DNA of 64,000 nt from Amoebophrya sp. A120. Lineage: Eukaryota; Protista; Dinoflagellata. A model generated the notes under the pieces. It was not told the origin of the DNA. It searched no databases and saw nothing but the letters and a program-made list of their open reading frames with translations. This document shows positions 8,901 through 62,900 of the stretch, one piece after another. The stretch spans positions 2,910,158 through 2,974,157 of the forward strand of contig CAJINV010000013.1 in the NCBI GenBank assembly GCA_905178155.1, written 5' to 3'. The translations under genes were made by a program, and so were the position numbers. Position 1 is the stretch's first letter; each line of letters opens with the position of its first letter.

Positions 8901-10816
8901 ATGTTCTTCTTTTACACGAAACTGATCAGGTTGAAGGAGCTGCTGCCGAGCTGGCTGCACTTTCCGCCGGTTGTGTGGGGCCTGTTCGTATCAACTGTAA
9001 AAATGTCTGGGTCTGGAAAAATTCATGTTTGTCATGCTTGTCTGGCATGACTCTTAAATCTGTCATGCACGTTACCCAAGAGCTCCGTTTTTCTGTGATG
9101 CAAAAGCGCAGTTTGTCATGCAGAATAGGCAACACCTGAGAGCTCAGAAACTTCTCATGCTGAGTCAGCATTTGTAGCCTCATCATGAGACGCCCCCCAG
9201 CATCACAAGTTCCCAGACCCAGACATTTTTACTTTTGATAGTTCGCTTTTGCGTTGATCGCGCACTTCATGACGCAGTACATGTATCAAATGCAAAAATG
9301 TCTGGGTCTGGAAGAATGCGCGATTTGTCATGCAGCTTTTCCATGCGCCATGAGGTCTGGAATGCAGGACCTAGCATGACAGATTCTATGCGATCTCTCT
9401 CATGCCTGTCCTGCATGAGAAACTCCCTCCCGACTTGGTCAGAACTGGACGACTTTTGGTAATCATGCAACGCAGATTTTTGCATGCTTCAGATGTAGCA
9501 TGACAAGTTGCATTCTTCCAGACCCAGACACTTTTGCACTTGATAACATGACGCACCGAACGAAGCAGCATCGCGGCCCCATGGCGGGGAAGGGAGGAGC
9601 CGCGGTATCAAATGTCAAAATGTCTGGGTCTGGAAGAGTCATGCTGTTTTTGCATGACACAGAAGGTCTGGCATGGAAGCTCTAGCATCACAGGTTTCGA
9701 GAAGCTTCCGCAATGCCGAATCCGCATGACAAGTCCCCTACTTTGCTGACAGAAAGTGTGCAGCTACTTTTGCTACGTATGCATGAGAGACTTTTCTGTG
9801 TTCTGAAATACGCATTACAAGTTGCATTCTTCCAGACCCAGACATTTTTGCATTTGATACGCGGCGCAGAGGATCAACTCCATGTTTCAGCAAGGCAAAG
9901 GCGGGCATTTGCTGAAGGGGAAGAACGCCGGGAATTCCATGGAGGAACTCAGTATCGGAGGGAGAGGACTCTTGGAATCAACAGTGAGCTTCGTTCTTTC
10001 TGCGGTCATGAGAAGAAGCGTAAACGTATGGATTCATTTTCCGCAATCGGTCGCAGCAGCGCTCGCGCTAAGTGGTTCGTTGGGGATATGACAGCACACC
10101 TAACCGCCGCTTCGCAGAACCCATGAATGATCAGAAGTGTGGCTTGCTTGCTCGCAAAAATACACATTATGTGGTTTAGGTTTTGTTGCACCACCTTCGA
10201 TAATAAATTTGATTGATTCAAGAGTTTTTTTTCCGCCATACGCTTGAAGATGGTCGGTATGGACAACAAGGGCGGGATTGGTGGCAAGGCGGACCTGCTG
10301 AACCTGATGAAGGGCGCTGCTTCTATGGGTCCCGGCGGGAAGCAGGCCGGTGCGACGGCGTTTCCCGGTGCAGTTCCCGATTTCGGCAAGGGCGGGGGCG
10401 ACTTCACGTTTGCAAACGGCAATGGCGAGGATGATTTTGACTATGACGACGAGGAGGATTACGAGGTGCCGGCTAGTGGGGGAACTACAACATCAGCAGC
10501 CCGGGATAAAAATCCCAAAGCGCCGGGAGGTAGTAATACCAGTACAACTTCTAGTAGAGCGAAAAATATCAATTCCGAGAATTTGGGCAAGGGTAGTGGT
10601 ACTACGAACAGCAACAGAGCTAATCAGCTGCACCAGCAAAATAATAAATCCGGTGACAATTGGCAGGAGCAACTGGTGGAACTGCTTTCGGACCAGAACC
10701 TGGATACAAAAAACACCACGGTGGACGAGATGATGCGGATGCTGGCCGGGGAGGATGGTGCTGAGGCGACAGGTGTTAGTAATACGAGGAATGGCGCGGC
10801 AAAAAAAGTGAAGTAG
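8901..10816 (+). CDS. Hypothetical single-TM, Gly/Lys/Met-rich protein; three introners and one GT-AG intron
   Basis: Removing 8989-9240, 9284-9545 and 9606-9859 (plus one TSD each) and GT-AG intron 9984-10249 gives MFFFYTKL...VVWGLFAFALIAHFMTQYMTHRTKQHRGPMAGKGGAAAQRINSMFQQGKGG...LLEST-MVGMDNKGG...KKVK*. A second frame is also open across the three small exons, so start and frame are less certain than the junctions. Confidence 0.65.
8989..9240. mobile_element. Introner, family A
   Basis: TATCAACTGTAAAAATGTCTGGGTCTGG ... CCAGACCCAGACATTTTTACTTTTGATA (~28-30 bp TIR); perfect TSD GTTCG. Confidence 0.92.
9284..9545. mobile_element. Introner, family A
   Basis: TATCAAATGCAAAAATGTCTGGGTCTGGAAGAATGC ... 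GCATTCTTCCAGACCCAGACACTTTTGCACTTGATA; perfect TSD ACATG. Confidence 0.93.
9606..9859. mobile_element. Introner, family A
   Basis: TATCAAATGTCAAAATGTCTGGGTCTGGAAGA ... TCTTCCAGACCCAGACATTTTTGCATTTGATA; perfect TSD CGCGG. Confidence 0.93.
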
Positions 10817-11219
10817 AAAGACGGGAATGTCGGTGTGTACTGACCTGAAATCTTCGATTAACGGACTTTTTGAATGTACGAAAGAAAATTGAAATTCTTT
10901 CAAGATTTAGATTTTTGTGATCGTCGACCCATGTCTTTCACAAGTGAAAGCTTCGCGCGCACGGCCGCACCAGCGCGCACGAGCGTGTTCAGCAGGATAT
11001 GTCTTTTGTCGCCACCGCTATATTGTTTTTTCTTTTTTGCTTTGTATACAAATACAGGGGTACCCGTACCCACAACTACTTATCTATCAAGTTGAGTACG
11101 TAGTTACTCTATGCGGAAGGGCTACTTCCTTGCTTTGCACTCGCTACGGAAAGAAGAATGAGCCTCAAGCTTGTGTAATATAGTCCACTTTAAAAAGCCG
11201 TTTTGAGAAAAAAGCGAAG

Positions 11220-14200
11220 ATGTTGCGCGCCACGCTGTCTGTGACTTCGAGCCAGCAGGGCAATCCGTACCTGGAGTTGGAAGACGAACTGTCGAGCAGG
11301 CTGGTGGCACGCAGAGAGGTGGAAGAAGAGGAAGACGAGCCACACCGGCATCCAAGCAGAACAACTGTCCGAGGCGGAGCTGGCTTGCCTGCGTGGATGT
11401 TCTCGGCGTGTTCTACTCCGTGCTCAACGAGTGACACTTTTTCCACCTCCTTCACGTCGACCTTTGCGAGAAATGTGAGTCTGTGCGTGTTACTTGTGAA
11501 GACGACCCTGCCGTTTATTCTGTCGAACCTGCTGACGTTTTTTCCGGACGTGGTGAACGTGTACGTCGCGAGTGGGAGCCTTGTCTATAAAAATTCCGGC
11601 GCATCTACTTCGGACTCGGAGCTTGTAGATGTCTCCCCACCCGCATCAACACGGACGACTCTAGTCCCGGCCATTGGCCTCGGGCAGCTGGTGCTGAACG
11701 GGCTGACGTTATCTCTCGTGTCCGGCCTCAACCAAGGCCTGGATGTGTACGTTCCGAACAGCCATTTGGCGAGCGGCAAAGAGTACTTCGCGCTGGTCTA
11801 CCTCGGGCGGGCGCACGCGCTGGATTTGCTGCTCTTGGTGCCGGCGGTGCTGGGCATTCTGCTCCTGGCCGGCCCGTGCGGGCTGGACTTTTTGCTCGAC
11901 GCCTACCTCGCTTTCTTCCCGGAAGCGGACGGCACCGGTGTCCGGGGCATCGGCGGCGCGATCGTTGCGCAGAGCGCCGCGTTCTAAGAAACGGGACCCA
12001 GTAGAAGGTGTAGTACTCCCGCTGCGCTCTATCGCTCGCACCTCGCACCGCTGGCGTATGGCTGCGAAAGAGCGAAAGCGATCGCACTAGTAGAGACGGT
12101 TTGTAGTAGGTATGGTTTCATCGGAAGGGAACGTGAAAAACTGGTTCATGCGAGTGGGCGCGCAGTATGGTCAACTATACGTGAAGACGAAAATGTCGGC
12201 ACATGCGTACTTAGATAGAGTTGCAACCGTAGATTATGTCATCCGCGATCCGCTCGGTATACATTCATAAAAACATATCTTGCGTAGAGTTTTTGTCCTC
12301 GAAGATCGAGGCCCTAGTGAATCATTTTCAAATCTGAGCGGCATGAAGATCACAAGAAATCGCATCTTTTTTTCCACTTCGGCGCCATACCAGTCTTCGG
12401 TACTGCTGTTGCGGCGCGCCGTTCTACGTGTTCGCCCACACCGCCTACCGGTATCGTAAGGAAAAATCCCTCCTCCCCATATCGAAAAGGCACGCCTCAG
12501 AGAATTTGCGATGCTGATTTGTGACCGCAGATCGTGGCGGTCTTGCAAGAAAGCAACGGCATAGGCTCCGCCCCATTATGCAGCCGGTTTGTAATGCTGT
12601 TGGGCCTACAGCATATACGTTCCCCATACTAAGCGCCTAGGCCAAAACCGTGCTACATTGGCACGATATGGGCCTGCAGTCCTCTACTGCAAGACAAATC
12701 CGATTTGTGTACGCAAATCCAGCATCAGACTTTTCATTTTGATGCGAAGAGGGGGGATTTTTCGTTTTGATAACCGGTTCACCCTCTTCCGGGGGAAGGT
12801 GGTGCTGCTTCTGCCCGTGCAGGTGCTCACGTCGCTCCTCCACCTTTTATGGTGCTACGTCCTGGTAGCAGTCGCGGGTCTGGAAGTGCCTACCGCGCTC
12901 GGGCTGGCGAATTCGGCGACCTGGGTGCTGCAGTTTGTTGGCTTCTATATTTTGCTCTGCCAACTGGAGTGCAGCTACGAGAAGTTTGACCTGGCGGGAG
13001 GTGCAGTGGACCCCGACCAGTCGTCTGCAAGTGCGGGAGCCGCCGCGGCGGAGGGACCACCGAGGAAGCTTCTTTTTCCCGAGCATGATCTGCGTGACGC
13101 GCCGTTAGAGGACGACGCGGGCATGAAGATCCCTCCCCTGCCGACGCGAGGCTCCCGGTCGGGCTCGTTTGCCGGGTTGAGCCTGGATCTTATCGACACG
13201 CACGTGGCCTTGACGGCGTCCAGGCCCGTGGTGGTGGACAATGCTTCACCCGCGCGAGCGGAAGTACAGGTAGACGAAAGCGTGTTGCCTGTCCATGCAC
13301 GAGAGGAGGAGAGCAGAAGCAGAGCCGCAAGTAGAAGTGCGGAAGCAGTTTGCAAAACACAAAATGAGAACAAACTACCACACGACTACACGAAGAAATT
13401 GTTGCCGGAAGAAGTAGTGAAGAATTCCGCTAATGCAACAGCTTCTGCGGCGTCTCTTCACACTTCCGTGCAAGAATCTCCGGAGCGTCAGTTTCTCGCG
13501 AGATCCTCCACAGTGGGCTCCTCATGTGCCGCCGGTGCCGCCAGCAGCGCTTTCAGTGCAAGTCGTACTGGCAACTACGAGCAGATGCAGGAGACCACGG
13601 GGAGCGACGCTATGATCGAAGCACGGCGCAACAGCAGTACTTCTGCCAGGAACGGGGATTACAAAGGCAGCCCCTTGATGCGGTCTTCAACGGCAGGACA
13701 GTACGTGGGCCAGACCACTAGAACAACGAACAGCCCCCGGAAGCAGTCGCGCGCCCCGCGCGCACTGCAGTACCAGGCGATCCGGGACTACCGGGAGAAA
13801 TCGCTCGTGTTGTCCCGTCGGGAGAGCAGCGGTTTGGACGCCGCACCACCACATGCGGATGATTTTGACCAGGTGTGGGCACCGGGCTCTCTGAATGGAA
13901 GTAGGCATATTATGGCACCAGAAGATGTTACTGGACGTCGAAGGAGGAGCAGCATGACGAGCGTGGATCCGTTTCAACAAGATCTCGACGACGATCCTCC
14001 TGCGCGTCTTCCCGATGGTAGTAATGTTGAAAATGCGAGCAGATTGACAAGTTCGTCTTCCACGACGAGCCTGTTTGTTCATCAGCAGCGAGGAGAGCTG
14101 CAAAGCGGCCGACGGAGCGTGACCGGGAGCTCTCCTGGCGGTGAAAAACACGACCACCTCCGTGAGCGGTACTATCCTAGTGCAGAGGTGGTCGGGGACA

Positions 14201-16402
14201 CGAAGTATCAGACGACAAGTAGCCGAAACTACTCCGCGGTCGGACCTCCGCTGGAGCAGCCGCTGCTTGCCCGTGGGGAAAATGAAGGAGACGTAAACGA
14301 AGAAGAACCTGGTGACTTCCTCGAGGACGACCCGCGGGTCACGATGAGTCAGAATCTTTCCCTGCTGTCTCCGACGGCGTCGTTCGTGGGGAAACTTCTC
14401 CGCGAGTCCTCGATGAATTTGTCGCAAATCTCGAGGTCCTACGCGACGTAGAAGGGGAGAAATCTTCGCCATCGCCGCCAGTTCGTGATGCCTCTGTGCA
14501 TGTGGATGAAATGAAGTTTATGCAAATTATCAAGTCATGTTGCCTAATATATCAAAACACGCATTTACTTATAATTGTGTTGCAAAATCATGGTCGTGAT
14601 GGTCTAGGAGAACACCCGCATTTTCGCCGGGATAGGTCCGTGTCGCTGTCCCGGCTGCCGAGCAAGGAGCGGAAAATTCCGCTGAAAGATGTGTTTTTGG
14701 TGTTCGATTTCACCAACAGCGATATTTGGTCCGTCAAGTCACTTTACCGCTACGCCCGGCTCTCGCTGCCAACGGCGTTCACGCAGCTCTTCACGGTGTT
14801 GCGCTACGAAAGCCTGCTCTTAGCGGTCTTGCTTGTCCAACATCAGCAGCAGCAGAGTTCGGAGATATTTTCCCCTTCTTCTTCCTCTTGGGCGGGGGAT
14901 AGATATGCTACAACCCAACCACCTACATCACAAGAAGCACTGGTAGGACAGTCCGCCGCAGCCTCACCTCACTCGGGATTGCAACCGCCGGAAGTTCTTG
15001 TTGGGGGCCAAGAAGCAACCGCCAGTGCATTAAATCTTGCTGGCGAGGCCAACATGTTCTTGAGCTCCAGTAGCAACACAACCCCCGTGGATTTCTTGTT
15101 GCAGGTAATCCTGACCAATCTCTACACGTTAGCGCTGTTGATTCCGCAGGGGGTGAGCTTTTTCCTCCTGCTCGCGATCGGCGAGTACCTGGGGTCTGGG
15201 CGGCCGGATATTGCCGCGGAATTGGCCCGTGTCGGCCCCACGTTCGCCGTCTTCGTCGCGCTGGCAAGCCAGCTGCTGTTCCTCAGCTTTGTCCGGGTGG
15301 ATGCGGTGATGTTAGGGTCTTCATACGACAGCGGCACAAGGCAGGACTCTTGGGAACAAAAAATCGCGAAAGCGGCTGCAGGTGAAGAGGATCGCACGGT
15401 AGATTGTTTTGGCGCGACGAGCAGTACCCCACTTTCTGGAGCGTTTCCTTTTCCAGGACCTTCACCAGCGGCAGCCACAGTGTGCTCGCCCGACAGCACC
15501 ACGTCGGGGAAGCACGGCGGTGTGTTCACGGCGGTGGCGTATCGTCAGGGAAAATAATGCCTCCTCCCCATATTGAAAAGGCATGCTTGTGAAAACTTTT
15601 GATGCGTATTTTTGGCCACAGGTCGCGCGTGTCTTGCAAAAGAGCGTGAATTCAGAGCGTTTGCCGTATTATGCAGGCTATTTTTTGCGGTGCTGCGTCT
15701 ATAATAGAGCAGGCCTCTGCTATGCTAAGAGCCTACGCCGAAACATTATAAACACCCCTGGCTACTTACGCAGGCCTAGGATTAACCTGCAGACCCTCAC
15801 TACAGGACAAAGCGGGTTCGTGTGCGCAAATCGCGCGAGCGTCACAGATTTCCAGTTGAGTAGGGGGAGGGGGAAGTTTTCATTTTGATATGGGGGAGCT
15901 GCTGTTCAGCGTGTACCACGTGGAAGAAGCGTCCGCCGCCGACCTGGCGAGCACGCTGCAGGTGCTGTTCGCGCAGTTTCTACTCGAAACGTTGTCCCTC
16001 TCGTTCGCGAGCATAATCCGGGCCTGCGCTTTCTGGCGGACGGGGTTTCTCGTTTACGGGCTGCAGGTGCTGTGCAACCTGCCCGTCGTGCTGTTGCTGC
16101 AGCAGGTGGCGTTTCACTCGAAGGGGTCGAGTACAGCAGGTCGTGGTTTTGGAGCCGGTTTGCTTTCAAAAACAAAACCTCCAGCGAAAGCTTTTTCATC
16201 TCCTGCTCCTGCCTCGAAGGACGAAACAGCGGCAGGCAGCATGCAAAGTTCTTGCTCTATTCTGCTGCCCATTTGGACCGGTGCCTTGCTCTTGTCGGTT
16301 TGTGGTGCAGTGGTCTTCTACAAGAAGCTGAAAACCATCGACTTTTTGCAACGGAGCGAGGCAGCGAGAAACCGACTTCGGAAGGAGTACTGGAGGCTGT
16401 GA
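11220..16402 (+). CDS. MATE-family (multidrug and toxic compound extrusion) transporter, spliced, with long low-complexity insertions
   Basis: MATE-like segments: LGQLVLNGLTLSLVSGLNQGLDVYVPNS..G; LHLLWCYVLV..LGLANSATW; ARLSLPTAFTQLFTVLRYE; IPQGVSFFLLLAIGEYLGSGRPDIA; SFASIIRA. Exons join across introners 12452-12772, 14440-14634 and 15540-15890, plus an intron at ~11981-12393 whose exact donor is uncertain. Confidence 0.8.
12452..12772. mobile_element. Introner, family B
   Basis: TATCGTAAGGAAAAATCCCTCCTCCCCATATCGAAA ... GAGGGGGGATTTTTCGTTTTGATA; perfect TSD ACCGG; frame restored (HTAYR-FTLF). Confidence 0.92.
14440..14634. mobile_element. Introner, singleton family I (weak TIR)
   Basis: TAC...GATA ends, perfect TSD GGTCC. 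Removal deletes the stop of ORF 12658 and joins it in frame to ORF 14496 (ISRS-VSLSR). Confidence 0.7.
15540..15890. mobile_element. Introner, family B
   Basis: TATCGTCAGGGAAAATAATGCCTCCTCCCCATATTG ... GGGGAGGGGGAAGTTTTCATTTTGATA; TSD TGGCG/TGGGG; frame restored (FTAV-x-ELLF). Confidence 0.85.
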
Positions 16403-16942
16403 ACAGTAGCAGGAGGCCGTGCCTGTTTATTGCTGCCGCTTACGTTTAGAAGAGGTTTGAGTTTCTGCATGAGAAATAAATACCGACACACAAACTCATT
16501 CTACGTGCAGTACAGTGCAGTGCGTTCCTTCGGTTTCTCCATCATCATTTGCGGCAAGTCGTGTTTCTCGTGCTGGCTCGCCCGCAGGAGTGCGTTCCCC
16601 TGATGGCACTTTCCGGTTCCCGGTGGTTCCAAACAGGTTTTCATTTTCTGCAGCACTTAGATTTAACTCCCTTAGTTGACCACGCAAGCGCACTGTCAGG
16701 GGTTGTCGTCCGCTCCTTTCTTCGCGGATTCTGTAGTAAACTGGTGTTATCTACTTCTATCTTGACAGCGTCGTTATGTGAGCGTGCAGAAACACATCAT
16801 CGTATAAATCAGGATCCGATCAGTGTTTTTTTTTCGTGGCGCACAGCGAGCGTATTTTCGTGTCTTGGTTGGTACATGATGGAACTGTAACCGCTGACAG
16901 TCGTCGTGCCTCCGTCGTTCAGTAAGAACATGTTCGATGATC

Positions 16943-20210: not shown

Positions 20211-20274
20211 GGCAAGTCAATGTGAATCCATGCATAGCCAGGAGCTGCGCAACCAGCCGGAAATACCTGTCCGA

Positions 20275-20602
20275 TATGCGTGACAAATATGTCTGGGTCC
20301 GGAATAATGCCACATTTGTGATGCTCGGCCACCAAGACGGCGCTGTAATTTACTGCATGACACGGAATAGCCAGATCGCTAGTCTGCTTGTACGGTAATG
20401 AAAGATTGGGGCTTACATATGTTTTTTAGTGAGTGCGTCTGTTAGAGTTACTATACTTACAGATGGACGCGGGCCGCGGATATCGGCCTTTCAAAAACTT
20501 GAAGTGCACACTCGCGTACCGGATTTTCTGTGTCACTTGCGCGGCTGCATCACAAATGTCGTGTCACTTGCTAGCTCGAGCCAGACATATTTGCAGTTGA
20601 TA
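20275..20602. mobile_element. Intergenic introner-like element (family A')
   Basis: TATGCGTGACAAATATGTCTGGGTCCGGAA ... CCAGACATATTTGCAGTTGATA; flanks TCCGA/CGCGA (3 of 5 match). Confidence 0.6.
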
Positions 20603-20792
20603 CGCGACCCTAAAACCCCAGTTCGAATCCCAGTAGACCCAAAATAATTATATCCCCTGAAAGCTAAAATTTTGCCCTAAGAACCCAAATAGAAGTAAGG
20701 CCGAGAGGACGCTGCAGGTCCCTGCGGAAGGAGAGAAAGCCCTGATGCCCCTTATTGTCTGCAGCACATAGAGCCCGATACAGGCTTTCATT

Positions 20793-46230: not shown

Positions 46231-49030
46231 GGCTCCCCGAACCACCGCCGGACACCCCGCGGGCAGATAAGTTCAGGACGCGGAAGCAGTGGCAGCAGGA
46301 AATGGTGGCCTGGAGAGACCAAACCATTGCGTACATCGATCGGTTCGAATTTGAGGGGGACCAACTTGAGTCCGATGGGACCTCCTCCGAGGAAGACGGG
46401 GAGATGCGATCCCATACCGGAAGCACCAAGGTGCAGGGCAGCGACGTCGACGAGGGACCCGCGCCGGGAAGTTCGATCCATGGGGGATCGGGCGTTGAGA
46501 CCGGTTCCCTGGCGGGCGAGGATGTCGTGAGCATGATGGATCAAAACCTCAACAACAACTTCCAGGAAGTTGTTGACAAAAAACCTCCACACGATCACGG
46601 CCAGGACCACCACACGACGACGACCGAAGGAGGAGCAGCTGTTCCACCTGGTGCGGACGAAAATAGTACCTACAACCGAGGCCACGTTGAGAACAACGAT
46701 TCGGGGCGCGCAGTTCAACACCAGCCGTCGAGCTCTTCTTCGCAAAGTCCTCAACCTCAGCTAGAACAAATCACCAGCACTGCAGCTCGAAAAAACAGCA
46801 AGAGCGAAATTCTCCCGCCCCCGAGTGGAGCTGGTCCGGCAGCGGGGTCGTTCTTTGTAGGGCAGCGTCAACATGATGCGTTTACGTCAGGAGTGAAAAA
46901 GAACCGCGCGGCTTCTAGCAGCAGTGTTACTTCTACCAGTAGCTTCGCCCAGCAGCAGTGGCTGAGGGAGCAGCAGCAATTCCAGCAGCCGCCGCACGGC
47001 GGTGGTTTACTATTTCAGCATTCGGGCGGGTCGTCGAGGGTGAATTCTGTGAGCAGTGACCGTCCGCGACCTGGGGAGCGAAAGAATTCGAAAGTCCTGC
47101 CGCCGCCACAGAGAACGAAAAGCGGCTCTCTGGAATTGAGTCGCTCGTCGTCCCAAAGGATGATGTCAAGGGCCAACTATCAAAATGAAAAATCCGCCCA
47201 CCCCATATTCAAACTAGAAATTTGTGATGCAGATTTGTGGTCACAAATCAGCTTTGTCATGCTAGACAGGAAAAGATGCGGACTGTAGTGCTGGTTGGCG
47301 TGGGGAAACCTTGCATCTTCAGCATGAAAGGGGGCAGCTGGAAGTGGGAAACAGCATTACAAATTGCCTGCAAACGAGGCCGCCGCTGCGTCTCTTGGCC
47401 TCCTAGCATTACAAGTCGATTTGTGTACTCAAATACAGCTTCACAAATTTCGTTTTCGATATGGGGAGGGGGGATTTTTCCTCCTGATACCAACAACAGT
47501 AGCAACATGATGGGCCACAAAACACGAGGTCACGACAAAAATCTTCCACAAAACACACAGTTTTCAACATCGGACGAAGGTAAAGTTTCCCGTGCGCAGG
47601 ATTATATTGCGGCCGCGGACACCACACGGAGGCTGGACGAACAGAGTCGCGACCATCTGCTGGCGGTGCGGGCCAACGAGGAGCGGAAGCGGCAAATGCA
47701 GGAGCAGGGGCTGATTCAGGAGCGGGAAAAGCGCGTGGGCGCGATGAGTGCCATTGAGAATGTCGGGAAGGATATCATGGGTTGGGACGCGAACTTCGGC
47801 GGCGAGGATGCTGCTGCGGCACGGCAGGCGGACGAGTTGCTGGGGACGGTAGACACCGGCCTAGGTTGTAGTGGTGGTTCCGGCATTAACGGGTCGGCTT
47901 CATCCGCCTGCTTGTCTTCTGGTAGTAGCGGGATTATCCCGCCCGGGCAGCAGTGCAGCTGGGAGGAGGTGCAAGAGGAATTTCACCCCTTGTACCAAAA
48001 GCCAGATTACAAGAACAAGATTGACGATCTTCTCGACGGAGGCGGGAACGCACGCGTCCGGAACGCCATTTATGCGTCGCAAATTAGCGCCCTGGTGGAA
48101 GAGTCAGTATTTGGCATATGCCCATGGTCATGACTTCTGTGATGCATGCCCTAGCATCACAGATTTGTGGAGGGCTGCTTGATGCCTTCCCCGCATCAGA
48201 AATGCCCGCTCCGCGTAGCACAACCACCAAGTGGACTCTTTTTGCTGGTTATGCAATGCAGCTCTTTATTATTCCCAAACTCGACTGATCCTTCCAGACC
48301 CAGACACGTTTGCAATGCATACCATTGTGCCGAGTACGATCCCCGGCTTGGAAACGCATATTCCCGGCATGGAAATTTCAGAAGAGAAAAGCACTGAAGA
48401 AGCTGGTAATAACTGTGCAGTGGACCTTTACCAGGGACAAGTAAGCAGCGATCGGATTGCCGGGATTATCCTATGTAAAAACGTCCCCACACCATAGTTG
48501 TAATGCAGATTTGCAAAGACAGGAAGACTTGTAATGCGCATCCGCATGAGAGCCATTTTCAATCGTGTTTTGGAATTTGTGATGCTGTGAACAGGATGAG
48601 CAGATGAATCTGTGACGCGGCTGCACTTGCTAACCTGCACTACACTGCAGAGTGCAACTCGTCATGCGTGACTCACAAAACTCCTAGGTTTGTGTTGCAA
48701 AATCCCCTTCCTGACTCTGGTGTGGGTACGTTTTTACTCAGGATAGCAATGGTGCTGGCAGGAGCAACTTCTAGCAGTACTACAGACTCTACGATCTTGG
48801 GCATGCCTTCCCGTCAACAGCAGGAGCATCTGCAAAACGGGAACGATGGTATTGAGTCTTTCTTGAGCAACTTCGACCAGTTCGCCCCAGCAGCCGGTGT
48901 ACCGGATAATATGCAGCAACAGCGAGAGCATTTGCCCGCAATGGCGGTGAACGCGGTCGTGCCAACGCCCGTGCGCTCGAACATGAGGAACAACGCCATC
49001 GGCTCAGTTTTGAATCAGGCGATGATATGA
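46231..49030 (+). CDS. Hypothetical low-complexity protein, spliced (5' end not defined)
   Basis: ORFs 46302, 47237, 48231 and 48668 join in frame when 47178-47489, 48071-48321 and 48467-48745 are removed (SRAN-NSSNM; RNAI-VPSTIPG; RIAG-M-VLAG). Confidence 0.7.
47178..47489. mobile_element. Introner, family B
   Basis: TATCAAAATGAAAAATCCGCCCACCCCATAT ... ATATGGGGAGGGGGGATTTTTCCTCCTGATA; perfect TSD CCAAC. Confidence 0.9.
48071..48321. mobile_element. Introner, family A' (left TIR decayed)
   Basis: TATGCGTCGCAAA ... TTCCAGACCCAGACACGTTTGCAATGCATA; perfect TSD CCATT. Confidence 0.82.
48467..48745. mobile_element. Introner, family C
   Basis: 279 bp, about 15 substitutions from 26364-26642 by eye; TSD GGGAT/GCAAT. 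Confidence 0.93.
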
Positions 49031-49927: not shown

Positions 49928-52900
49928 ATGATAACCCGACATATTTTATTTGCCAAGTTTTCTCTCCTGCTCACTACCCTGACCGGTTGGGATTTGCGGT
50001 TCTGCGAAGGCTCAGCGACGACCCCGTTTCTTCCGAAGAATACGAGACAGGACTACAACAACAGCATCGACGCAAATGCGGCTTCGAGTACGAGCTCTAC
50101 TTGGATCGACGCTCGGAACAAAACTACTCCAGATACGATCACGGCTGCGGATTTTCTGCAGTTCCAAAGAAGGCGATCCTGTGCGCGCGGGACCGCGACG
50201 CTTGTGTGCGCTTTCAATTTCTGTTTTGCACTCAGCTGGTTTTCAGGGAGTGGCTCAACTTCGGTGAGGAATTATAGCCATGGTCTTGTTCCACATGGAG
50301 GTTCATCTATGCAGACGCAAATGCTCGCGGTGCACAAGAAAGCAAGGCCGCAACTCAGGACGTTCGATGACACGGCTGCGCTGCAGGAGAGCATTTACAC
50401 GTTCAACGACACCGCGCTGGACCAACATGTCGCCGAGTATCAAATGCAAAAATGTCTGGGTCTGGAAGAGTTGGAACTTGTGATGCAAACTCTGGAAGAC
50501 GCAAAACCTTGTGTTGCATGAGCGCCAAAAGCTGTCCATTTCTTGGTCCGCAAGTAGGAAGCTTCTCATGCAGGACAGGCATCATGAGGCGTGCTCAAAA
50601 CCTGTGATGCTTTTGCCTGCATCAGACGCTATTTGCGTGATCCGAAATATGCATGACAAATCTCGTAATCTGGCAGACCCAGACATTTTTACATTTGATA
50701 CCGAACCAGGAGAATCAATTTCGAGGTTCAACGCGGAAGGACTGCAGACCGGGTGGCGCTCCGAGTCGCTTCTACCTACATTCAGTCCTCCTTTTGGAAT
50801 GAACATGAAGTCCGCTAGTGTAGGAGTTCCAGGAAGTAGAGCAGGGCCTCCTTCGACATACACAGGAGCTTCTGCGGAGGATCACATAGGTGTTCCGCTG
50901 CCGTCCGCTCCCAGGGACGAGTCCCCCGGCGGTTTTCCTTCCTCCAGCAGATCGTTGCTGGACCACCAGCAGACCACCACCACGCAGGATCTTGAGCTCG
51001 GTCGTTTTGACTTCGAGCAGCGTTTCGGGAAGGAGGAGCTGAAAAGGAGCGTCGTGAACAAAAGCGCACTGAAACGCAACGTGGTGGGCGACACGTACTC
51101 GAAGGAAGAAGAGCAGGGGTACGGCAAGGCGGCGCTCCACGCAGCGACACCCTGGGCAGTTGTGCCTTTTCCTGTCGTGCAGCCGCTGGGCGGGCCGATA
51201 TCGGCTTCTGGGGTTGACTTTTTGCGACGGGGAGCGAGTTGGGACACAGAAGTGAGTCAGCAGGACAAGATTAGCTCTGACCCGCGAAGAACGGCGGAGA
51301 AGGGAACAAAGCAAGTCCGAGTTCCTCTTTCTTCTTCTGTGTCTTCCCCAGCCCCGGACGGGAAAGATCAAGTTGGAAGAGGTGTTGACGCGGAAAAGAA
51401 AACCACTCCGAGCGGAGACGACCCAAGAGCAGGCCAGGCACTCTACAAAACGAAGCACGGGGCGATGTACGGCAACGTAAAGGAGTTCGAGGGCACCGTC
51501 GTGCACGAATTTTTAGGCATTCCCTACGCGAAGCCGCCGGTCGGAGAACTGCGGTTCAAAAGCCCGCAGGATGTGGAGTCGTGGTAAAATAAGTAGATGA
51601 GAACACTTTTTTTCTGCATGGCATGGAAATCAGAAATAATAACTGAAGCCACTTTCCTAAAAGGTTATTTGAAAAATTCAGAAGACCCATCAACATCGAC
51701 AGGTCTCCTCGGATTCTGGACGCGACGCAGCAAAGATTTTACTGTCCGCAGAAGCCTGTCGAGTACATTCCGAAAAGGCAGCAAAGCGAAGACTGTCTTA
51801 CCCTTTCTGTCTGGGTGCCACAACAGATTCCTGAACAAGATAAAGCTGGTGGTGGTGCCCGGGAATCAACGACGAAAAGAACAACCACAGGAAATAGAAT
51901 AGCGTCGAGGAACGAGCCCAAGCGTAAAAATATTACTAAAAACAAGCTTCCCATTCTCGTCTGGATCCACGGGGGCTCGTTCCACGCCGATTGGCCGAAT
52001 CCGAATCCTCTTTACGACGGCACGAAACTGGCCGCGGTCGGGAATGTTATCGTCGCAACGGTGAACTACCGGTTGGGAGCTGTCGGCGCCATGTCGTTTT
52101 CCGAGTCGCAAGACAAGATTTCCGATCTTCTTCCCGGGAACCAAGCGATGCTGGATCAGCAGAAAGCGCTCGAGTTCTTGAAGGAGAATTTTGCGTCAAC
52201 CTCGTCCTCGCTGCACTCCCTCGGCGACCCCGACAGAATTACGGTGTTTGGGCAGTCGTCCGGCGGGGTGCAGACCGCGTTTCACTTGGTATCCTTCCTG
52301 AACAAAAAAGTCAACCTCTTCGGCGCGTTCCCCATGGCGAACTTCGCTCTGCATCACCAGTCAGAACCCCTGAAGAACGCCCTGGAACTGGGGAAGAAGC
52401 TCGGGTGTGGCAAAGTAGGAGGTCACAGCGAGATCATGTCGGGCGGTGGTCATCTTGGTGATGGACACGATCAAAATGCATCGACTTCTTTGGAGGGTAG
52501 TAGTAAGGCAGGAAAAATTCGTGTGGCGGATGAGCCAGAAATTACAGGAGCAGCTTCTGAAGCCGGATCTGAAATACAGCAGTCTCTCCTGACGTGCCTG
52601 CAGCAAGTCCCCATCGAGCAGATCGTGAATCTCCAAGACTGGGTCGGGGATTGGACCACGTGGACCCCGGTGGTCGACGGCTTTATGTTCCACAAGCCAG
52701 CAGAAGATGTACGTGAGTTGGCCGGTAGTTCAACATCGAGTACTACTGAGAATCCCCACGATAGATCGTCTTTTCTATCCCAGTCCAGCGCGTTGCCAAA
52801 GTCTTTGAAAGACTCCAGCGCGTTCGACATTTCTCCGATGAAAAACGTCGCGCTGCTTGCCGGATGCAACTCTGGAGAAGCCGGTCCCGACAAATCCATC

Positions 52901-54469
52901 GTGAACCAGGACCAGTTTGACGCGGTGGTGCAGAATATGGTGAAGAAGACGGGGTGGTTAAAAACTACAAATCGCGACATGTTGGGAAAAAAACCTTCCG
53001 AAGAAGGTCCACGAGGAGCAAAGCAAGGTCCTCTGACGGAGCAACAGCTCGTTGCCGTCCGCGACTTTTACTTGAACAGAATCTCGGCCGACACGAAGAT
53101 CGTTTCCAAATACAACTACGGGCTGGACTCCGGATTTTCGAAGTATGCGTTAGCTGCGCAGGCGGTCTCGAACGACTTGGATCCGATCCGGGAATTGCGG
53201 GAGTTGGCTTCCTTGCATTTTGACGTGCAGAGCGGAAGGAGAGGACGGGGAGGACGGAGTGGCGAAAAAATCGAGGAAGAACGGCCAGGAGAACAGAGCT
53301 TAGGGTCCGCGAGACCGTGGTCCTCACAGCAGGATCAGAACCACTCTGGAGCTGCACCAACACCAGCAGATGAGGAACACGAGTTCGCATTTTTGGCACG
53401 AAAGAGGGCCGTTAGTACTTCAACAGATGACAGAATAGCAAGCCGCATCAGCAGCTCTACTACCCCGGACGGGAAGGCCGAGCCGGAGTTTCTTTTCGGC
53501 TCAACATCTGCAGGCAGCACCGGAGCTGCATCAGCGTCGGAGGTGCAGCAGCAGGACAAAGACAATGATAAGCCACGAGCCAAAACCTTTGTCTACGAAT
53601 TCACGCACGGGTCCTCCTTCGAGCCGACGTCTTTCCTTTATGACAGTGCACAACTCCCCCTTGCAACAGCAGCAACACAATTGCTGGCATAAATGCAGCT
53701 TTTGCATGACAAATTCGCGACCGATTCCAGTGCTGTTTCGGCTTCCAAAAACCTGTCATGCAAGAAGTGGCAAAGAGAAAAGGGTGGATTTGGTATTTTG
53801 CATGACAAATGAGGGGGAGGGGGAGTTGTGCATTGTCATATCCTTCCGATCAAACCGGACCCGAGTTCGACCAATTCGTCCGCTGCGGTCGAGAAGTGGC
53901 GGCAACAGTGGGACCAGTGGCAGTCGATAAATGAACAGCAACGGATGAGGGAGGAGGAGAAGCAGTGGTACCACTACCTCGCCCCGCACGGTGCGGAACT
54001 GGATTTCCTGTGGGGCCGGGCGATTGACTTGGGGACGGAGGAGGAGAAATTATTGTCGAAATTGTTCATGAAATACGTTGCGAATTTCGCCTACACAGGG
54101 GACCCAAACTCCGGACCGCACGAACCCCTGCCGATCCCGTTCTGGCCGGAGTTTGTAAATAGCGGAACAGTAATATCACCGCGAGGAGGAGACTCTTCGT
54201 CAGGCCCATCCGTCGGTGGCGGCGGAGGGTCAATGGTTATTGATAATTTTACCAGGTGGGAATGGGATAGTAGTTATGCACCAGAGGAAAATGAAAATAT
54301 GGAAAAGCAAACGGCAACAACGTCAAAGATAGTGGCAAACGGAGTTTCTATAAAAACGATCGCGGATGCCTTTGGCCCGCGGGGACCGGAGTTTCAGTTT
54401 TGGCGAACCTTGCTTGAGTTGCCGGAGGGGGACATGTTCCGTCCGGATTTTTTGAACCCGCAGCCGTAA
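49928..54469 (+). CDS. Type-B carboxylesterase / cholinesterase-like alpha/beta hydrolase, probably secreted or membrane-anchored
   Basis: Motifs FLGIPYAKPPVGELRF, SEDCLTLSVW, VWIHGGSF, NYRLG, GNQAMLDQ, GDPDRITVFGQSSGG (nucleophile Ser), GCNSGEAG (Glu), HGAELDFLWG (His), NFAYTGDPN, and a hydrophobic N-terminus. Introners 50438-50700 and 53639-53840; GT-AG intron 51584-51702. Confidence 0.9.
50438..50700. mobile_element. Introner, family A
   Basis: TATCAAATGCAAAAATGTCTGGGTCTG ... CAGACCCAGACATTTTTACATTTGATA; TSD CCGAG/CCGAA; frame restored (HVAE-PGES). Confidence 0.92.
53639..53840. mobile_element. Introner, singleton family G
   Basis: TATGACAGTGCACAACTCCCCCT ... AGGGGGAGTTGTGCATTGTCATA (23-bp TIR, 1 mismatch); perfect TSD TCCTT; frame restored (TSFL-PIKP). 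Confidence 0.92.
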
Positions 54470-55433: not shown

Positions 55434-55600
55434 GGCCGCGGCGCGCCCAATGTGGTCGTCGCGGCTCCGGCGCGCCCAGATTGGTCGCTCCATTTCCGGC
55501 GCGCCCAGTCTGGTCGTCCCGGCTCCGGCGCGCCCAGAGTGGTCGCCCCAGCTCCGGCGCGCCCAGAGTGGTCGCCCCGGCTTCGGCGCGCCCAATCTCA
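55434..55600. repeat. GC-rich tandem repeat, ~29 bp unit, 5-6 copies
   Basis: Units of GGTCG(T/C)..CGGCTCCGGCGCGCCCAGA(G/T)T. Confidence 0.85.
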
Positions 55601-55609
55601 TCAACCCGG

Positions 55610-56070
55610 CGCCGAACGGCCGTTGGACAACTTCTGGCAGTCCGACGGCCGTCGGACGACTCTGGGTTGTCCGACGGCCGTCGGACGAGTTTCGGCTGTC
55701 CTACGGCCGCCGGACGACTTTCGGTTGTCCGACGGCCGTCGGACGACTTTTGGTTGTCCGACGGCCGTCGGACAATTTTTGGCCGTCGGACGACTTTTGG
55801 CCGTCCGACGGCCGTCGGACAACTTTCGGCTGTCCGACGGCCGTCGGACAACTTCTGGCCGTCCGACGGCCGTCGGACGACTTTTGGCTGTCCGACGGCC
55901 GTCGGACAACTTTTGGCCGTCCGACGGCCGTCGGACGACTTTTGGCTGTCCGACGGGCGTCGGACGACTTTGGGTTGTCCGACGGCCGTCGGACAATTTT
56001 TGGCCGTCGGACAACTTTTGGTTGTCCGACGGCCGGCGGACAACTTCTGGCCGTCCGACGGCCGTCGGAC
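55610..56070. repeat. Palindrome array: 18-bp palindrome GTCCGACGGCCGTCGGAC at 29-bp period, 14 full and 2 half copies
   Basis: Copies start at 55640, 55669, 55698, 55727, 55756, 55803, 55832, 55861, 55890, 55919, 55948, 55977, 56024 and 56053, with 11-bp linkers such as AACTTTTGGCC or GACTTTTGGCT. A degenerate copy precedes the array at ~55610. Confidence 0.95.
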
Positions 56071-56076
56071 GACACT

Positions 56077-56385
56077 TGAAGTCGAAACTAAAACTCAAAC
56101 TCCAAGTTGATTCTAAATCTCAAACTCGAAGTCGAAACTGAAGCTCAAACTTCAAGTTGATTCTGAAACTCGAAGTCGAAACTGAAACTCAAACTCAAAG
56201 TCCAAGTTGATTCTGAAACTCGAAGTCGAAACTGAAACTCAAACTCAAAGTTCAGGTTGATTCTGAAACTTGAAGTCGAAACTGAAACTCAAACTCTAAC
56301 TTAATTCTCAAACTCAAACTCAATGTTGAAACTCAAACTCAATGTTGAGACTCAAACTCAATGTTGAAACTCAAACTCAAACTGA
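56077..56385. repeat. AT-rich tandem repeat (~45-51 bp unit) decaying into AAACTC hexamers
   Basis: About five copies of GAAGTCGAAACTGAAACTCAAACTC...AAGTTGATTCTGAAACTC, then AAACTCAAACTCAATGTTG units. Confidence 0.9.
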
Positions 56386-56535
56386 CATTTGCATTCTTTT
56401 CTGCCAAGGTAGTTAATATCTATACCATGATAAGATTTTTATTTTTGCTCGCGACACAACGGCCACCTATAGGATTGTAAGTAGCCAGTTTAGATAATTG
56501 CTGAGAACTTTTACAAACCAGCACCACAAAAGAAA

Positions 56536-58845
56536 ATGACGCTCACAGCGGGCAACTCGTCGTCTAGCACGGCGTACAACCCGAAGATCACGCGCATCGG
56601 TCTGCACCACAACGTGACCAAGAGAACGCAGCCCTTTTCCTCGGAAGTTAGCAAGGTACTACGTGACTCGTACACAGCAAAAATCTTAATCTTCTGTAGT
56701 TATTCAATGTGCTGGCAAGTAGTCTCCAGCTGGAATGCGCATCATCCGAGAGGCACACGTAAATACTTTTTTTTTCGCGACAAGAAATTATGAAAAAACA
56801 GGTGAGTTTCGGGCGCAAGGGGCAGCCCGGACTTAAGCCGACGGACTTTTCGTGCAGTCTGATCCCATTCTCTTTCCTGACGTTTACATGGGCAACAAGT
56901 GAACCGGGGAAAATCAAGGCGTTAATCAAGTCAGGGGACCATGGTAAGACTCTTAGAGAAACAGTAGCTGTGTTGCGGTTCTATTGCATGACAGTGTAGC
57001 TTTGTGCTGCGTCTTTACGCATGGTAAAGACAAAAACAAAAATGAAATGCGAATCAATTCCTCTTGTGTCGACGAAATAAACCAGATCTTTTCAAGCTGG
57101 ACGGAGATAGAGAGCGAAAAAACGACATTCCCTTGCGGCTCCCGAAAACCCCCGAGGCGCTGAAAAAGCTGGAGGACATAAATTTGAGCACTCCGAAAGG
57201 GCAAAAACCGCCGGTCGTCATCAACCGGGACAGGAAAAACAAAGCGAAAGTTGAGTCCTTGGAAATTTCCCTGGATATCGGCGACAGTTTGATTTTTCAG
57301 GAGAAAATCCAGGAAAACGCGGCGGAGCCGGTGGATCACGTGCTGCAGATCGTCTCCTACAAGCCCACCAGCTCGGTGTCCCAAAAGGCCTTCGTCGCAA
57401 AATATCTGCGACTCAAACACGAAGCCGATAAGGCGGAAGCCAAGAACGCGGAGCTGCAGAGGTATATCTGAGTAAATAGCGCTGTTATTGGGATGGATTG
57501 TTTATTACGGTAAGTTGTGCACGAAAAATGCATAATAAATTTCCTTCGTGGCTTTGCACAAGAACCAGATGCGAAAAATAGAAATTATCTTGTACTTGCT
57601 GATGTCTTTTGGGGAGACGCGAGTCACAAAAATTTTCACCTTAAGGCAATACGCCCCGCTGGTCGCGGAGCTTGCCGCGCCTCCGCAGAAGAAGCAGGCC
57701 GAGCTAGAGACTTTAATCGGGAAAAAGAAGCTACTGCAGACCAGGTGCGAAATGATGGAGAAGAAGTTTGAAAAAGAAGAGACGGCGGCGAAAAACGCCA
57801 ACGAGGGCGAGTTAGAGACAAAGCGAGAAGCCAGGCTGGCGGTGCAACGCGAGATTGAAGAAGTGCAGAGGAGCATTGAGACTGGTAAAGAGCGTAATCA
57901 ACGTTATTCGTTTCTTTTTTAGATCAGGAAAAATTCAGCTCTCACGGTAAGTAACGTGATGTCAAAAATATTATGCGCAAGAATTTAAATTTTATCATGG
58001 ACAAACGCAAAAATTGCTTCTACTTTCACCAATACGATGCGACTACAGAAACACACATGGTGAATCCACACGCGCGCGCGTTGCAGGGGGTCGGGCAGTA
58101 CAAGGGAAAATTCAAGCTGGAAGACGAGAAAGCAGAGGCCGACGTGACCGACCAGATCCAACTGATAAGGAACGCCCAGTACAATTTTTTCTTTACTAGG
58201 CTTTGTTTTGAAAAGTTGGCTGCAAGTTTTTCTACAGGCATGCGCCACGACTTTCGATATTTATAACTTTCGATAGTTAGCTGACCATGCATTCATTTTT
58301 ATTATGTAGCTTCTGCAACTTTATCTGACGCATAAAAGATTTTCTCTCGCTTCTTGCTCCACAACAGGCCCGACACGCTGGATAAAAACGATTTTCTGAA
58401 ACTGAACGCGGATCGAGGCGACCTGTTCGTATGACCTGCAAAAATATCGCACTCGTATAAATGCATTGCAAATAATTATTTCCTCAGCATGAGAAACAAA
58501 ATTTGTAATGCAGATTTGCCTTGGAAACAAGATTTGTATATGCAAGACTTGTATTTAGCATTTGTACGAGTACGATGCTTTTGCACAGGATAGTTCGACG
58601 ACGACGACAAATTCGGGGGAAAGTCACCCAAGCGAAGGAAGTTATCGGGCGCAAACGACACGCCGTTTCTCGCGGACACACCGCTGGGGCTTGTGGAAGG
58701 TCAGACTCCGGGGGCGACGCCCGCATACGAGGGGGGGCAGACTCCGGGGGCAACGCCAGCGTATGAAGCAGCGGGCGAAGAGGACGAAGCAGACAACGAC
58801 TCGTCCCCGGTCGAGGACGAAGAAGACGACTTGTTGGCGGAGTGA
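56536..58845 (+). CDS. Hypothetical nuclear protein with acidic, TP-repeat C-terminus; several GT-AG introns and one introner
   Basis: Exons join through canonical introns (e.g. 56647-56801, ~57463-57645). After removing 58430-58592 the end reads GDLFDDDDKFGGKSPKRRKLS..EGQTPGATPAYEGGQTPGATPAYE..EDEEDDLLAE*. PKRRK resembles an NLS. Confidence 0.65.
58430..58592. mobile_element. Introner, short family H
   Basis: TATGACCTGCAAAAATATCGCACTCGTATAAATGC ... GCATTTGTACGAGTACGATGCTTTTGCACAGGATA; perfect TSD GTTCG. Confidence 0.88.
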
Positions 58846-59946: not shown

Positions 59947-62900
59947 ATGGCCGGTGCGGAGCAGGAGCAGCTGGGCGATTTGCGCCGCACGCTAAACGAA
60001 GCGCTGGAGGTGAAGGGCGGCGCTGGGGGTGCCACTCCGAGCGGGAGTGGGCCGCCGAAAAGTACGATGCTCGTGTTACCCGGGTCGCCGGACCATCCAC
60101 GGACAGGTACTGGAGAAAACATCAGTGCGGGGGGAAGCACCCAACACGTGCCGCCGCCCAGCCCGTGTCACTCGGCAATGTACAACTTCATTTATGAAAT
60201 TTGACTAACGCGGCCATCTTCGAATTTGTGCGGACATAAGCCCGGCGTTCTTTGAGTATGTTCGTAGTTGTATTTATTCACGACCGAAAAGTCGGACTTT
60301 TTGATTTTGTTCGGTAGATCATGAGTATTTTGTTTCCATCAGCATGGAAAACAATTCCAACCTCAGCGGCCTGCCGTCCGTTCTCGGGAGTCAGGACGGC
60401 ATTTCGACCGGGCAGATAAATTTTCCCGGATTATCATTATCCTCATCACCATCACCGAACCCGCCGCCAAAAGACGGAGGGGGTGCAGCTACAACTTCTA
60501 CGTCTTCTACTGCCGAAGGTCCAACTAGTAAGGACAAAGAGAAGAAACACAGTCAAAACCAGGTCAACTGCAAGTCTCGTCCGGGATCGATCGCGCAGCA
60601 GTTGCAGGTGGTGCACAAACGCTCGGACATATCGCAAGAAAAAAGTGTTACAGTTACACATTGTGTTGCGAAACAAGCAACACAGGCAACCTCTGTCATG
60701 CCGGATATGTATAGGAGCCTCGTTTCATAGGTGTTTTCCCGTGCGATTTCTGCATTACAAGTTTTCTCCCTCATGCAGAGAAATTTGTGTTGCTGAATTG
60801 ACCACAAATGTGTAACTGTGACACTTTTTTCGTGGGATAGGACACCAGTACCAGCTCAGTAATTTCTTCGTCCCATCGGCACAGCCACAGTCAAATCCTG
60901 GCGATGAACATTGCGGAAGAGAGTGAAGAAAGGGATTGTTCTCATCATGCCGCCCCAGACGGCGGGCTTCTCGGAAGCGGCACAAATGTCCGCACCGGCT
61001 CCTCCGCATCTTCTCCGAGCAACGCAAACACCAATTTTTCGTCATCCGCAAACCAAAACGTCGCGTCGGCCGCCATTCTCTTGCACTCACCGACGACACA
61101 CGACAGCAACAGTGTGGAGAAAAGCGTTTCCACGGGGGGCGATGTTACCGTGGAGAAAAACCTTTCGGGAAATGCGCAGTCTTTGGATTTGCTGGAGGCG
61201 AACCAGACGAAAGGCCTGGGGTTGCAGCAGAGCCACTCCACCCGGAGCGCGCGGCAGGTGTGCTCCCCGCTAGCCCCGATCAAGTCGGAGCGGCACGCCG
61301 AGCAGGTGTCGAAGCAGCTCACTTCGGAGACGGATTACAGCGATAGCAGTGTGCCGCTGGCCGACTGTGAGGCCGCAGGCGCGCACGCCACGCGGTCCAA
61401 CATGATGGGAACGGCGGGGGTGGACGTCGTGCAGAAGATGGACTCGGAGGAGGACGAGAAATTCGCGACGCCGTTCGGCGGCTACTTCTCGGTAAAGTCG
61501 GAGGCCGCGGCGGACGCGGTGGAAAACAGTCCCTATTTCGGCTACGCGTACGGCTTCACGTGGTGGACGTTTGCGATGGTGCTGGGGATCTGCATCGGGG
61601 GGGTCAACCTCTGCTTCCACGCCGCCTACCACAGCATCGAAGACTCGCTCGTCTGGGCGGCCGAAGAACTCTTCTACACCAACGGCGACGACTATCGCAA
61701 GAAAAAAGTGTATATAGTTACACATTGTGTTGCAAGACCGGCAACACAGATCATAACCTTTCTCATGCAGGAAATGCTTGGGAGCCTCGTTTCCTTCCTG
61801 TAATTTTCCCTTATGATTTTCGCATTACTCCCTGCCACACAGATAAAATTTGTGATGCAGAAACTCCAACAAATGTGTAACTGTAGCACTTTTGTCTCGT
61901 GATAACGACGACCGGACCGCAGCGCAGGCGATCTCGTACCACCTCTTCCGCGCGTATCAAATGTAAAAATGTCTGGGTCTGGAAAATTGGAACGTGTAAT
62001 GCGTGTCATGCACTCCTGGAAAATCTGTGTTGCATGAGCAGCAAAACAGAGGCTTTCTTTGTCATGCAAAAACGCAATTTGTAATGCGTGCTAGGCATCA
62101 GCAGACCTCTCAAAAACTTGTCATGCTTGGCTGCCATTGGAAGCGCTTCAATCATGCGCAATTCAGCATCTCAAGTTTCCAGACCCAGACATTTTTACAT
62201 TTGATAGCGCGGTCGGGGTGTTAATTTCCAGCATTTTTGTCGGCGTCGTGGTGTCCATGCTGGTGCCGGAGTGCAGCGGGGGCGGCACGATTTCCGTCCG
62301 CGCGTGTATCGCGCTCGGGTCTTTCGTACCCGCGCACGTCGGACTGGCAAGATTTGCGCTGTCGGCGGTCTACATTGGGTTTGGCAATCCGCTCGGCGCG
62401 GAGGCGCCGACGCTGCACATCTGCGCCGCGGTCAGTTGCTCGCTGTACTGGCTCTGTCAACAGTACCAGAAGATATCCGTCTACTTCCCGGCGGAGAACA
62501 GAACCACGATGGTGATGTGTGATTTTGGAGGATGTGTGTAGAAGTCGTGTTTGGGTCTTGACGATGCTCTGCCTCGTGGTGCAGTCGTGTTGTGTCACGC
62601 ACAAAAGTTTCATCCTGTGCATATGTGTATGAGTAGAGGATTTGGTCGTGAGTCGATTGTTCGCCGGTCCGAAATCTAAATCTTCCTTGTCGACAGGTTA
62701 TCGTCGGCTGCACCTGCGGCCTCGCCGCAGCCTTTTCCGCCCCCATCGGCTCGATCCTGTATGCGATGGAGGAATTTCGGCACTCGCTCGGGGACAGCAA
62801 CATGTACACCACTCTGATCACCACCGCGTCGCTTGTTGCCGTGGTTACCACGCAGTTAGTGGTCACGGGGAAGTTTTACGAAACGTGCGAGGGCGGCACG

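Follow-up and report, generated by a model that had tools for sequence, protein, structure and literature searches.

Within a 64,000-nucleotide stretch of the genome of the dinoflagellate Amoebophrya sp. A120 (contig CAJINV010000013.1, positions 2,910,158 to 2,974,157; hereafter the window), short non-coding elements of several families carry an internal array of one motif, with the core TGT-C/G/A-ATGC, whose sites are enriched, conserved above the bases around them and placed in phase with the repeat of the DNA double helix. We read the motif as a putative double-stranded DNA site for a transposase or a cofactor, which would bend the short element so that its ends meet, and we hold this reading to be reasonably probable. 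Judged by their sequence, the elements match the published signature of the Amoebophrya A120 introners.

The motif carriers are mostly 150-390 bp long and non-coding, with TAT...ATA ends and 5-bp target site duplications (TSDs). In the window, 31 elements were delimited by paired ends and target duplications, by joints and by eye. All element ends have in common the outer signature TAT(C/G)-N4-G-N-AAAA(A); the position weight matrix of 38 window ends reads T94 A96 T91 C79, with G81 at position 9 and A81-94 at positions 11-15, and 22 consensus ends were examined as well. The first-pass annotation of this DNA had called the terminal inverted repeats (TIRs) of the families unrelated, which is half wrong, because TIR divergence is confined to positions 16-30: the inner TIR and the interior do differ between classes, but the outer 15 bp and the 5-bp TSD are common to all. 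One transposition system may therefore serve all families. With TIRs, TSDs, short uniform size and no coding capacity (stops occur in nearly all frames), the elements have the hallmarks of miniature inverted-repeat transposable elements (MITEs).

A metagenome scan with the class A end gave 150 loci, 141 of them on contigs that belong to a single assembly (JACKZZ01 ids). This design over-samples class A, the remaining classes having entered as neighbours. Apart from the elements themselves, none of the loci overlaps the window. The class A end had no match in viral contigs. From 302 candidates we kept 291 elements, dropping 10 that exceeded 420 bp and one overlap. Single-linkage clustering fused nearly all families, and community clustering was used instead; it left 38 of 322 elements unassigned and resolved the public and window copies into 11 families of 4-49 copies in six TIR classes, with 18 window copies among them. 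An exact 5-bp repeat flanks 249 of the 291 elements and a 6-bp repeat one, in a set pre-filtered for at least four of five matches, and a profile search without the TSD filter recovered 365 copies, of which 262 have a perfect 5-bp repeat and 51 a repeat with one mismatch. Modal lengths are 150, 206-209, 252, 262, 279, 311 and 321 bp. Subfamily lengths within a class differ by exactly 10 bp (252/262 in class A, 311/321 in class B); the idea that element length is a whole number of helical turns was rejected, as it is not uniform across classes. Family 5 (window 60630-60839 and 61693-61904, with 24 locus copies) combines one interior with three different inner TIRs, and a change in its left end goes with a change in its right (match 11.2, with shuffled partners 7.7; P = 0.003). 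On this sequence pattern the inner TIR seems to be kept for complementarity and not for its sequence.

The words TGTNATGC and GCATNACA occur 39 and 32 times in the window, and the motif coordinates of the first-pass annotation all hold the motif on re-reading (26396-26588 in family C, 9030-9114 in family A and 53704-53800 in family G). In the 7,640 interior bases of the 31 window elements we found 60 strict matches, as against 1.7 ± 1.4 in dinucleotide shuffles (n = 100), and 24 of the elements hold at least one. Outside the elements there are 11 matches per 54,758 bases against 5.8 in shuffles, six of the 11 lying, as judged by eye, within decayed intergenic copies at about 20.3-24.3 kb. The impression that the motif is sparse in the long exons proved right (one match per 20,030 bases), and the two canonical introns available in the window hold none. 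Elements from public contigs repeat the pattern, with 891 strict matches in the 291 copies against 20 in shuffles and 283 copies motif-positive; across window and loci the enrichment over shuffles is 35- to 45-fold, and the motif words take the top rank in an unbiased k-mer screen. The extended consensus, drawn from 57 sites, is A-Y-Y-TGT-(C/G/A)-(A/T)-TGC-(A/T/G). Each family has 4-7 strong sites in both orientations, the first of them 36-60 bp in from the element ends. The core presumably recalls TGCATGCA, an apicomplexan AP2 site, or UGCAUG, the RBFOX site, a likeness that plays no part in what follows.

The recurring distance of about 31-33 bp, which had been taken as about three helical turns, turned out to be part of a stronger regularity than was claimed. 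The 11 family consensuses hold 24 pairs of like orientation at 31-33 bp, where 3.1 are expected, and 13 pairs of opposite orientation at 15-17 bp, where 2.9 are expected (P = 0.0002); both excesses persist with one family per class. When inverted sites are given a half-turn offset, adjacent pairs follow a 10.5-bp period (mean cosine 0.66, 52 pairs, P = 0.0005), a result unchanged with one family per TIR class, and the 33 pairs that are left without those at 31-33 bp still give 0.55. Over all distances within whole elements and in both orientations, the best period is 10.40 bp (family bootstrap 10.35-10.45), and the fit falls to about 0 at 10.0 and 11.0. The helical repeat of B-DNA is 10.4-10.5 bp and that of the A-form 11. 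With a motif matrix derived from all families, period and offset fitted on the other classes carry over to classes A, B, F and J when these are held out (P 0.0005-0.0095). In addition, 19 weak sites that were not used in setting the phase are in phase (mean cosine 0.76; sum 14.4 against -0.5 ± 2.1), as are AA/TT steps outside the strong sites (z 5.0; some may flank weak sites), and G/C steps are in anti-phase. Site phase relative to the element ends is weakly shared across families (0.41, P about 0.02). Phase and enrichment together thus speak for the common protein-binding site that had been suggested from the sequence.

The same regularity might be produced by a host architectural or chromatin protein that binds the motif with no direct part in transposition and sets wrapping, silencing or tolerance, so that array copies persist or get copied more. 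The nucleosome period is also about 10.4 bp, and a 10.4-bp phase with AA/TT steps in phase and G/C steps in anti-phase is the pattern of wrapped DNA; such a protein would allow partial constraint after insertion and would be in keeping with the lack of a transposase in the frames scanned here and in the available text of PMC7789003. We nevertheless think a host protein of this kind unlikely. The host shows no sign of using the motif, which outside the elements stays at background (11 matches against 5.8 in 54.8 kb) and whose seven near-invariant bases point to sequence-specific reading. Further, dinoflagellate nuclei in general lack or nearly lack nucleosomes, according to the accessible part of a review (PMC11453091).

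The sites are also conserved. In the 365 copies, motif bases are 7.1% off consensus against 20.7% for the other interior bases, in a comparison whose motif columns were chosen from the consensuses, which favours apparent conservation. In copies with perfect duplications the values are 6.0% and 19.3%, so most interior diversity predates insertion and the sites were kept. Trees of nine families give a relative rate at motif bases of 0.22 on internal and 0.50 on terminal branches. With duplication decay as a clock, the relative decay of the motif is 0.51 (0.21-1.0), and the terminal TAT hardly changes (0.009 against 0.061). The conservation of the motif fits selection on copies that propagate.

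A motif without current function, inherited from a single element ancestral to all families or from a 31-bp unit that was amplified, would account for the outer TIR common to all families and for some remnants of likeness between classes: when interiors are compared between classes with the motif masked, 3 of 44 pairs score above every one of 100 shuffles, and the spacers within 31-33 bp pairs show a slight resemblance across TIR classes (0.374 against 0.302 ± 0.006). Because this small likeness remains, the families may share a deep common descent, and within classes A and B the masked interiors show clear kinship in several pairs. Common ancestry alone, however, cannot keep sites and phase. 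Motif bases change three times slower than the neighbouring interior, and about five times slower on internal branches; the phase persists without the 31-33 bp pairs; and the sites are intact while 41 of the 44 between-class masked pairs are within shuffles. Tandem amplification of a 31-bp unit was rejected, since the elements hold no 31-bp tandem array and spacers are unlike their neighbours (identity 0.26). Inert inheritance is, in our estimate, the most improbable of the explanations considered here.

How the elements are removed from transcripts was read, for window positions 1-17000, from transcript-like contigs of one sequencing run (X4, RNA by guess), and for the rest of the window from restored reading frames as the sole evidence of splicing; three joints (9063>9516, 9064>9200 and 9319>9812) were excluded, being taken to stem from other copies that align there. 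At least 10 elements in 1-17000 are skipped exactly, each with five flanking bases that equal one TSD copy, at non-GT-AG borders, and in one contig of 2,167 nt four elements and a canonical GT-AG intron are all skipped, as in a spliced mRNA. Window genes with elements lie on the plus strand, and cutting out an element and one duplication restores long frames: removing the six elements of the gene at 1393..3823 yields a 1,188-nt open frame, and removing those that begin at 27089, 27515 and 30168 a 9.3-kb frame, both on the plus strand. The removed segment reaches 1 nt beyond the left TAT and 4 nt beyond the right ATA, the sole register that fits all ten listed joints and the one forced by the joint 9951>10245, where the TSD has decayed. 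This -1/+4 cut holds whatever the bases and restores the pre-insertion sequence. G is somewhat favoured as the first intron base, giving GTAT (54 of 148 perfect TSDs).

Exact skipping would suit a motif that acts in RNA, either as a splicing-factor site or through pairing between copies, which would fold the intron and bring its non-canonical splice sites together. Predicted folds lend this some colour: 7 of 11 consensus interiors beat shuffles (z < -3 on both strands or -4.8 on one), forward and reverse copies pair with each other (46 of 62 core bases in family 0), four families keep z < -3.5 with the sites held fixed, and some constraint after insertion is possible. Mixed-orientation interiors fold well, however, because inverted sites pair, whereas in families 3 and 8, whose sites nearly all point one way, predicted folding does not exceed chance (z -1.0/0.2 and -1.6/-1.5) and few core bases are paired (14/48 and 2/48). 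A polar array does equally well as intron in either direction: of the class C family whose sites all point forward, nine copies are sense and nine antisense. Five of the ten listed skipped elements are without a strong site, two of them without any even at a low cut-off. Finally, single-stranded RNA is without a helical period, and the fit at 11 bp, the A-form value, is about 0. A role as a splicing mark is therefore unlikely, given the strand inconsistency, the skipped elements without sites and the failure of families 3 and 8 to fold, and we regard action in RNA as improbable. Of the two functions that had been offered for the motif, the DNA-level role in transposition fits these results, and the mark for splicing fits them poorly, for want of a consistent strand and of strong sites in half of the listed skipped elements.

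Several points weigh against a double-stranded DNA site for a transposase or cofactor. The motif does not clearly form part of the TIR: its matrix scores at least 7 in 1 of the 22 consensus ends. For classes C and E, when held out, the prediction falls short of significance (P = 0.08 and 0.056), sites of like orientation at gaps of 18, 39 and 48 bp break the phase, and the phase is weak in the unassigned old elements (0.25 near 10.0-10.1). On the transcript strand, called for 180 of 322 elements, 272 motifs are forward and 227 reverse (P = 0.049, copies not independent), and several families are strand-skewed (2/10, 3/9, 13/5, 10/4) in no single direction. Partial constraint on the motif may have continued after insertion, and the choice of motif columns described above counts here as well. 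A Pfam search over about 0.5 Mb found no transposase or integrase family in 88 locus frames (87 of the 128 long locus frames and one long element) or in 21 window frames, and no transposase was found within long TIR pairs. The genome paper, in the available text of its section 16, has A120 without a transposase and rejects a general transposase-mediated mobilisation of introners (PMC7789003).

In the mechanism that we favour, a sequence-specific protein would occupy the motif sites on one face of the helix, and the bound protein together with the in-phase AA/TT steps would bend the 150-320 bp element until the two TAT...ATA ends meet. The outer TIR would serve as the cleavage signal, and a 5-bp staggered insertion would make the TSD. 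Copies with the array intact would be those that propagate, so that families with different interiors would all retain it. Splicing would use the ends (TAT/ATA and the complementary inner TIR) and not the motif. A broader proposal, which we make tentatively and with less confidence than the DNA-site reading itself, is that the many introner families are one transposition system, in which a transposase or a host DNA-bending protein reads a one-faced 10.4-bp array, and that an intron of 150-320 bp thus holds a mobility code (outer TIR and array) separate from an RNA-removal code (end pairing, -1/+4 cut, sequence-free splice sites).

These results bear on the spread of non-canonical introns in Amoebophrya, where they number tens of thousands; for this spread the available text of the genome paper gives neither a transposase in A120 nor a unifying interior signal (PMC7789003). 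A conserved and phased common site points to one protein, acting on double-stranded DNA, as the likely agent of mobilisation. It unites families that have been counted as separate, and it separates what a new intron needs for moving from what it needs for splicing. The motif array also provides a defined bait, with a set of mutants (scrambled sites, half-turn shifts), for catching the protein.

Table 1. Elements and related features of the window, with positions of motif sites (F, forward; R, reverse).
Feature	Position	Strand	Observations
Gene with six older elements	1393..3823	+	1393-1675, 1724-2012, 2093-2345, 2493-3223, 3318-3476, 3565-3823; all skipped; four without strong motif site
TIR element, class C-like	6433..6739		five reverse motifs 6511, 6567, 6604, 6656, 6688
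TIR element, class A, 252 bp	8989..9240		perfect 5-bp TSD; motif 9030, 9061, 9094, 9114 (F), 9200 (R); joint 8983>9241, one TSD copy removed
TIR element, class A, 262 bp	9284..9545		motif 9326 (F), 9374, 9498 (R); joint 9278>9546
TIR element, class A, 254 bp	9606..9859		four reverse motifs 9652, 9685, 9724, 9812; joint 9600>9860
Decayed element	9953..10240		no site scoring at least 7; still skipped, joint 9951>10245 unambiguous
TIR element, class B, 321 bp	12452..12772		motif 12590
Decayed element	14440..14634		5-bp TSD; TGTGTTGC at 14576; read by eye; removal joins long + frame
Older class B element	15540..15890		eroded motif sites, 9/42 core bases changed
Decayed class A copy	20275..20602		intergenic repeat region; motif 20317, 20355, 20547
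TIR element, class C, 279 bp	26364..26642		six forward sites 26396, 26427, 26475, 26508, 26557, 26588
Older class A element	26659..26955		motif 26757, 26827 (R)
Class B element, 326 bp	27089..27414		sites 27176, 27227
Older element	27515..27767		motif 27726
Class C element	30168..30425		motif 30278, 30337
Class E element, 157 bp	42849..43005		motif 42883 (R), 42913 (F)
Class B element, 321 bp	43064..43384		orientation opposite to 27089; motif 43239, 43322 (R)
Class B element, 312 bp	47178..47489		motif 47223, 47255 (F), 47354, 47406 (R)
Class A element	48071..48321		motif 48138 (F), 48154 (R), 16 bp apart
Class C element, 279 bp	48467..48745		sites 48499, 48530, 48578, 48691
Class A element, 263 bp	50438..50700		sites 50479, 50510, 50603 (F), 50651 (R)
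Element 'G', 202 bp	53639..53840		in + strand carboxylesterase gene, Pfam PF00135 both sides; sites 53672, 53704, 53754, 53800
Class E element, 163 bp	58430..58592		motif 58504
Class F element, 210 bp	60630..60839		sites 60662, 60677, 60694, 60752, 60786
Class F element, 212 bp	61693..61904		sites 61726, 61741, 61851
Class A element, 252 bp	61955..62206		forward sites 61995, 62004, 62026, 62060, 62080, 62119

At 8930-9951, a canonical intron and four elements are separated by four exons of no more than 38-92 nt; three of these elements are class A copies, each of another subfamily, within 900 bp. In the intergenic region 19382-24272, decayed class A-like copies (19382-19707, 20275-20602 and 22657-24272) keep motif copies; they have common flanks and were therefore likely duplicated within a larger segment. 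At 16943-18210 there is an insertion of another kind, whose perfect 21-bp inverted repeat surrounds the N gap; it is absent from the paralogous segment at about 20810-21790. Three adjacent tandem arrays fill 55439-56383, two of 29-bp period (the second made of palindromic units) and one of 25/50-bp. Host genes recognized by Pfam are a carboxylesterase (PF00135, 50484-54466) and a voltage-gated chloride channel (PF00654, 62652-63773); most other long window frames have no Pfam family. Some elements contain inserts of a few hundred bases (L026:632-1465, L028:4304-4760, L053:3862-4492 and L052:571-1051 among the loci, and window 2493-3223), two of which terminate in an (ATC)n/(GAT)n run resembling the tail of a retro-element; one frame of L026 gave no Pfam match, and the window element 2493-3223 is still spliced out in one piece in the transcript-like contigs. 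Such nested inserts could explain introners classed as retrotransposon-derived.

The closest known systems include the A120 introners themselves (Farhat et al. 2021, PMC7789003), which the available text describes as having an inverted repeat of TAT, seven less conserved bases and at least three A, direct repeats of 3-5 nt (a 5-bp repeat in the legend of Fig. S19), non-canonical borders, a mean length of about 240 nt and co-oriented genes. The window elements are like them in the TAT inverted repeat, direct repeats, borders, gene orientation and length, but here the TSD is 5 bp throughout and an interior array is common to all families. The text of that paper, whose figures may bear on this, mentions no internal motif, helical phase or fixed cut register, and an interior motif or helical phasing was not found in the accessible text of the introner and transposon literature searched, where figures and supplements may likewise bear. 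Transposase-bound arrays of subterminal repeats are already known, and what appears to be new, against the literature searched, is a phased motif array inside introner families. One such known array is that of the Emigrant MITE, whose subterminal repeats are bound by Lemi1 proteins in an arrangement-dependent way; the same paper, in its available text, cites Sleeping Beauty, pogo, CACTA and hAT for subterminal transposase-binding repeats (PMC1636448). As in Emigrant, a short motif is repeated inside both ends in either orientation and is conserved above background (here 7.1% against 20.7%). The Emigrant repeat, however, is half of the TIR, whereas here one of 22 ends resembles the motif and binding is predicted only.

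By their termini the elements resemble IS3EU/GingerRoot, which have TA..TA (TAY..RTA) ends (PMC10045372, PMC6839031 and PMC12730594, as far as their text is available), but the TSD of those elements is usually 6 bp and here it is 5 bp (6 bp in 1 of 291). The IS3EU/GingerRoot transposase is integrase-like, recalling A120 family 38, which is TIR-flanked and integrase-like (PMC12130899). By the TSD they resemble hAT5, which also has 5 bp (PMC12730594, available text), and hAT elements use subterminal repeats (cited in PMC1636448); hAT5, though, is placed among animal hAT families, and the likeness drawn here is by TSD alone. From these sequence features we claim membership of neither group. With respect to removal from RNA, the nonconventional introns of euglenids are similar in TIR-based pairing and in an offset between the splice sites, but in the available account their pairing joins positions +4..6 with -8..-6 (PMC11282704), whereas the paired ends of the elements described here would start at +2 and -5.

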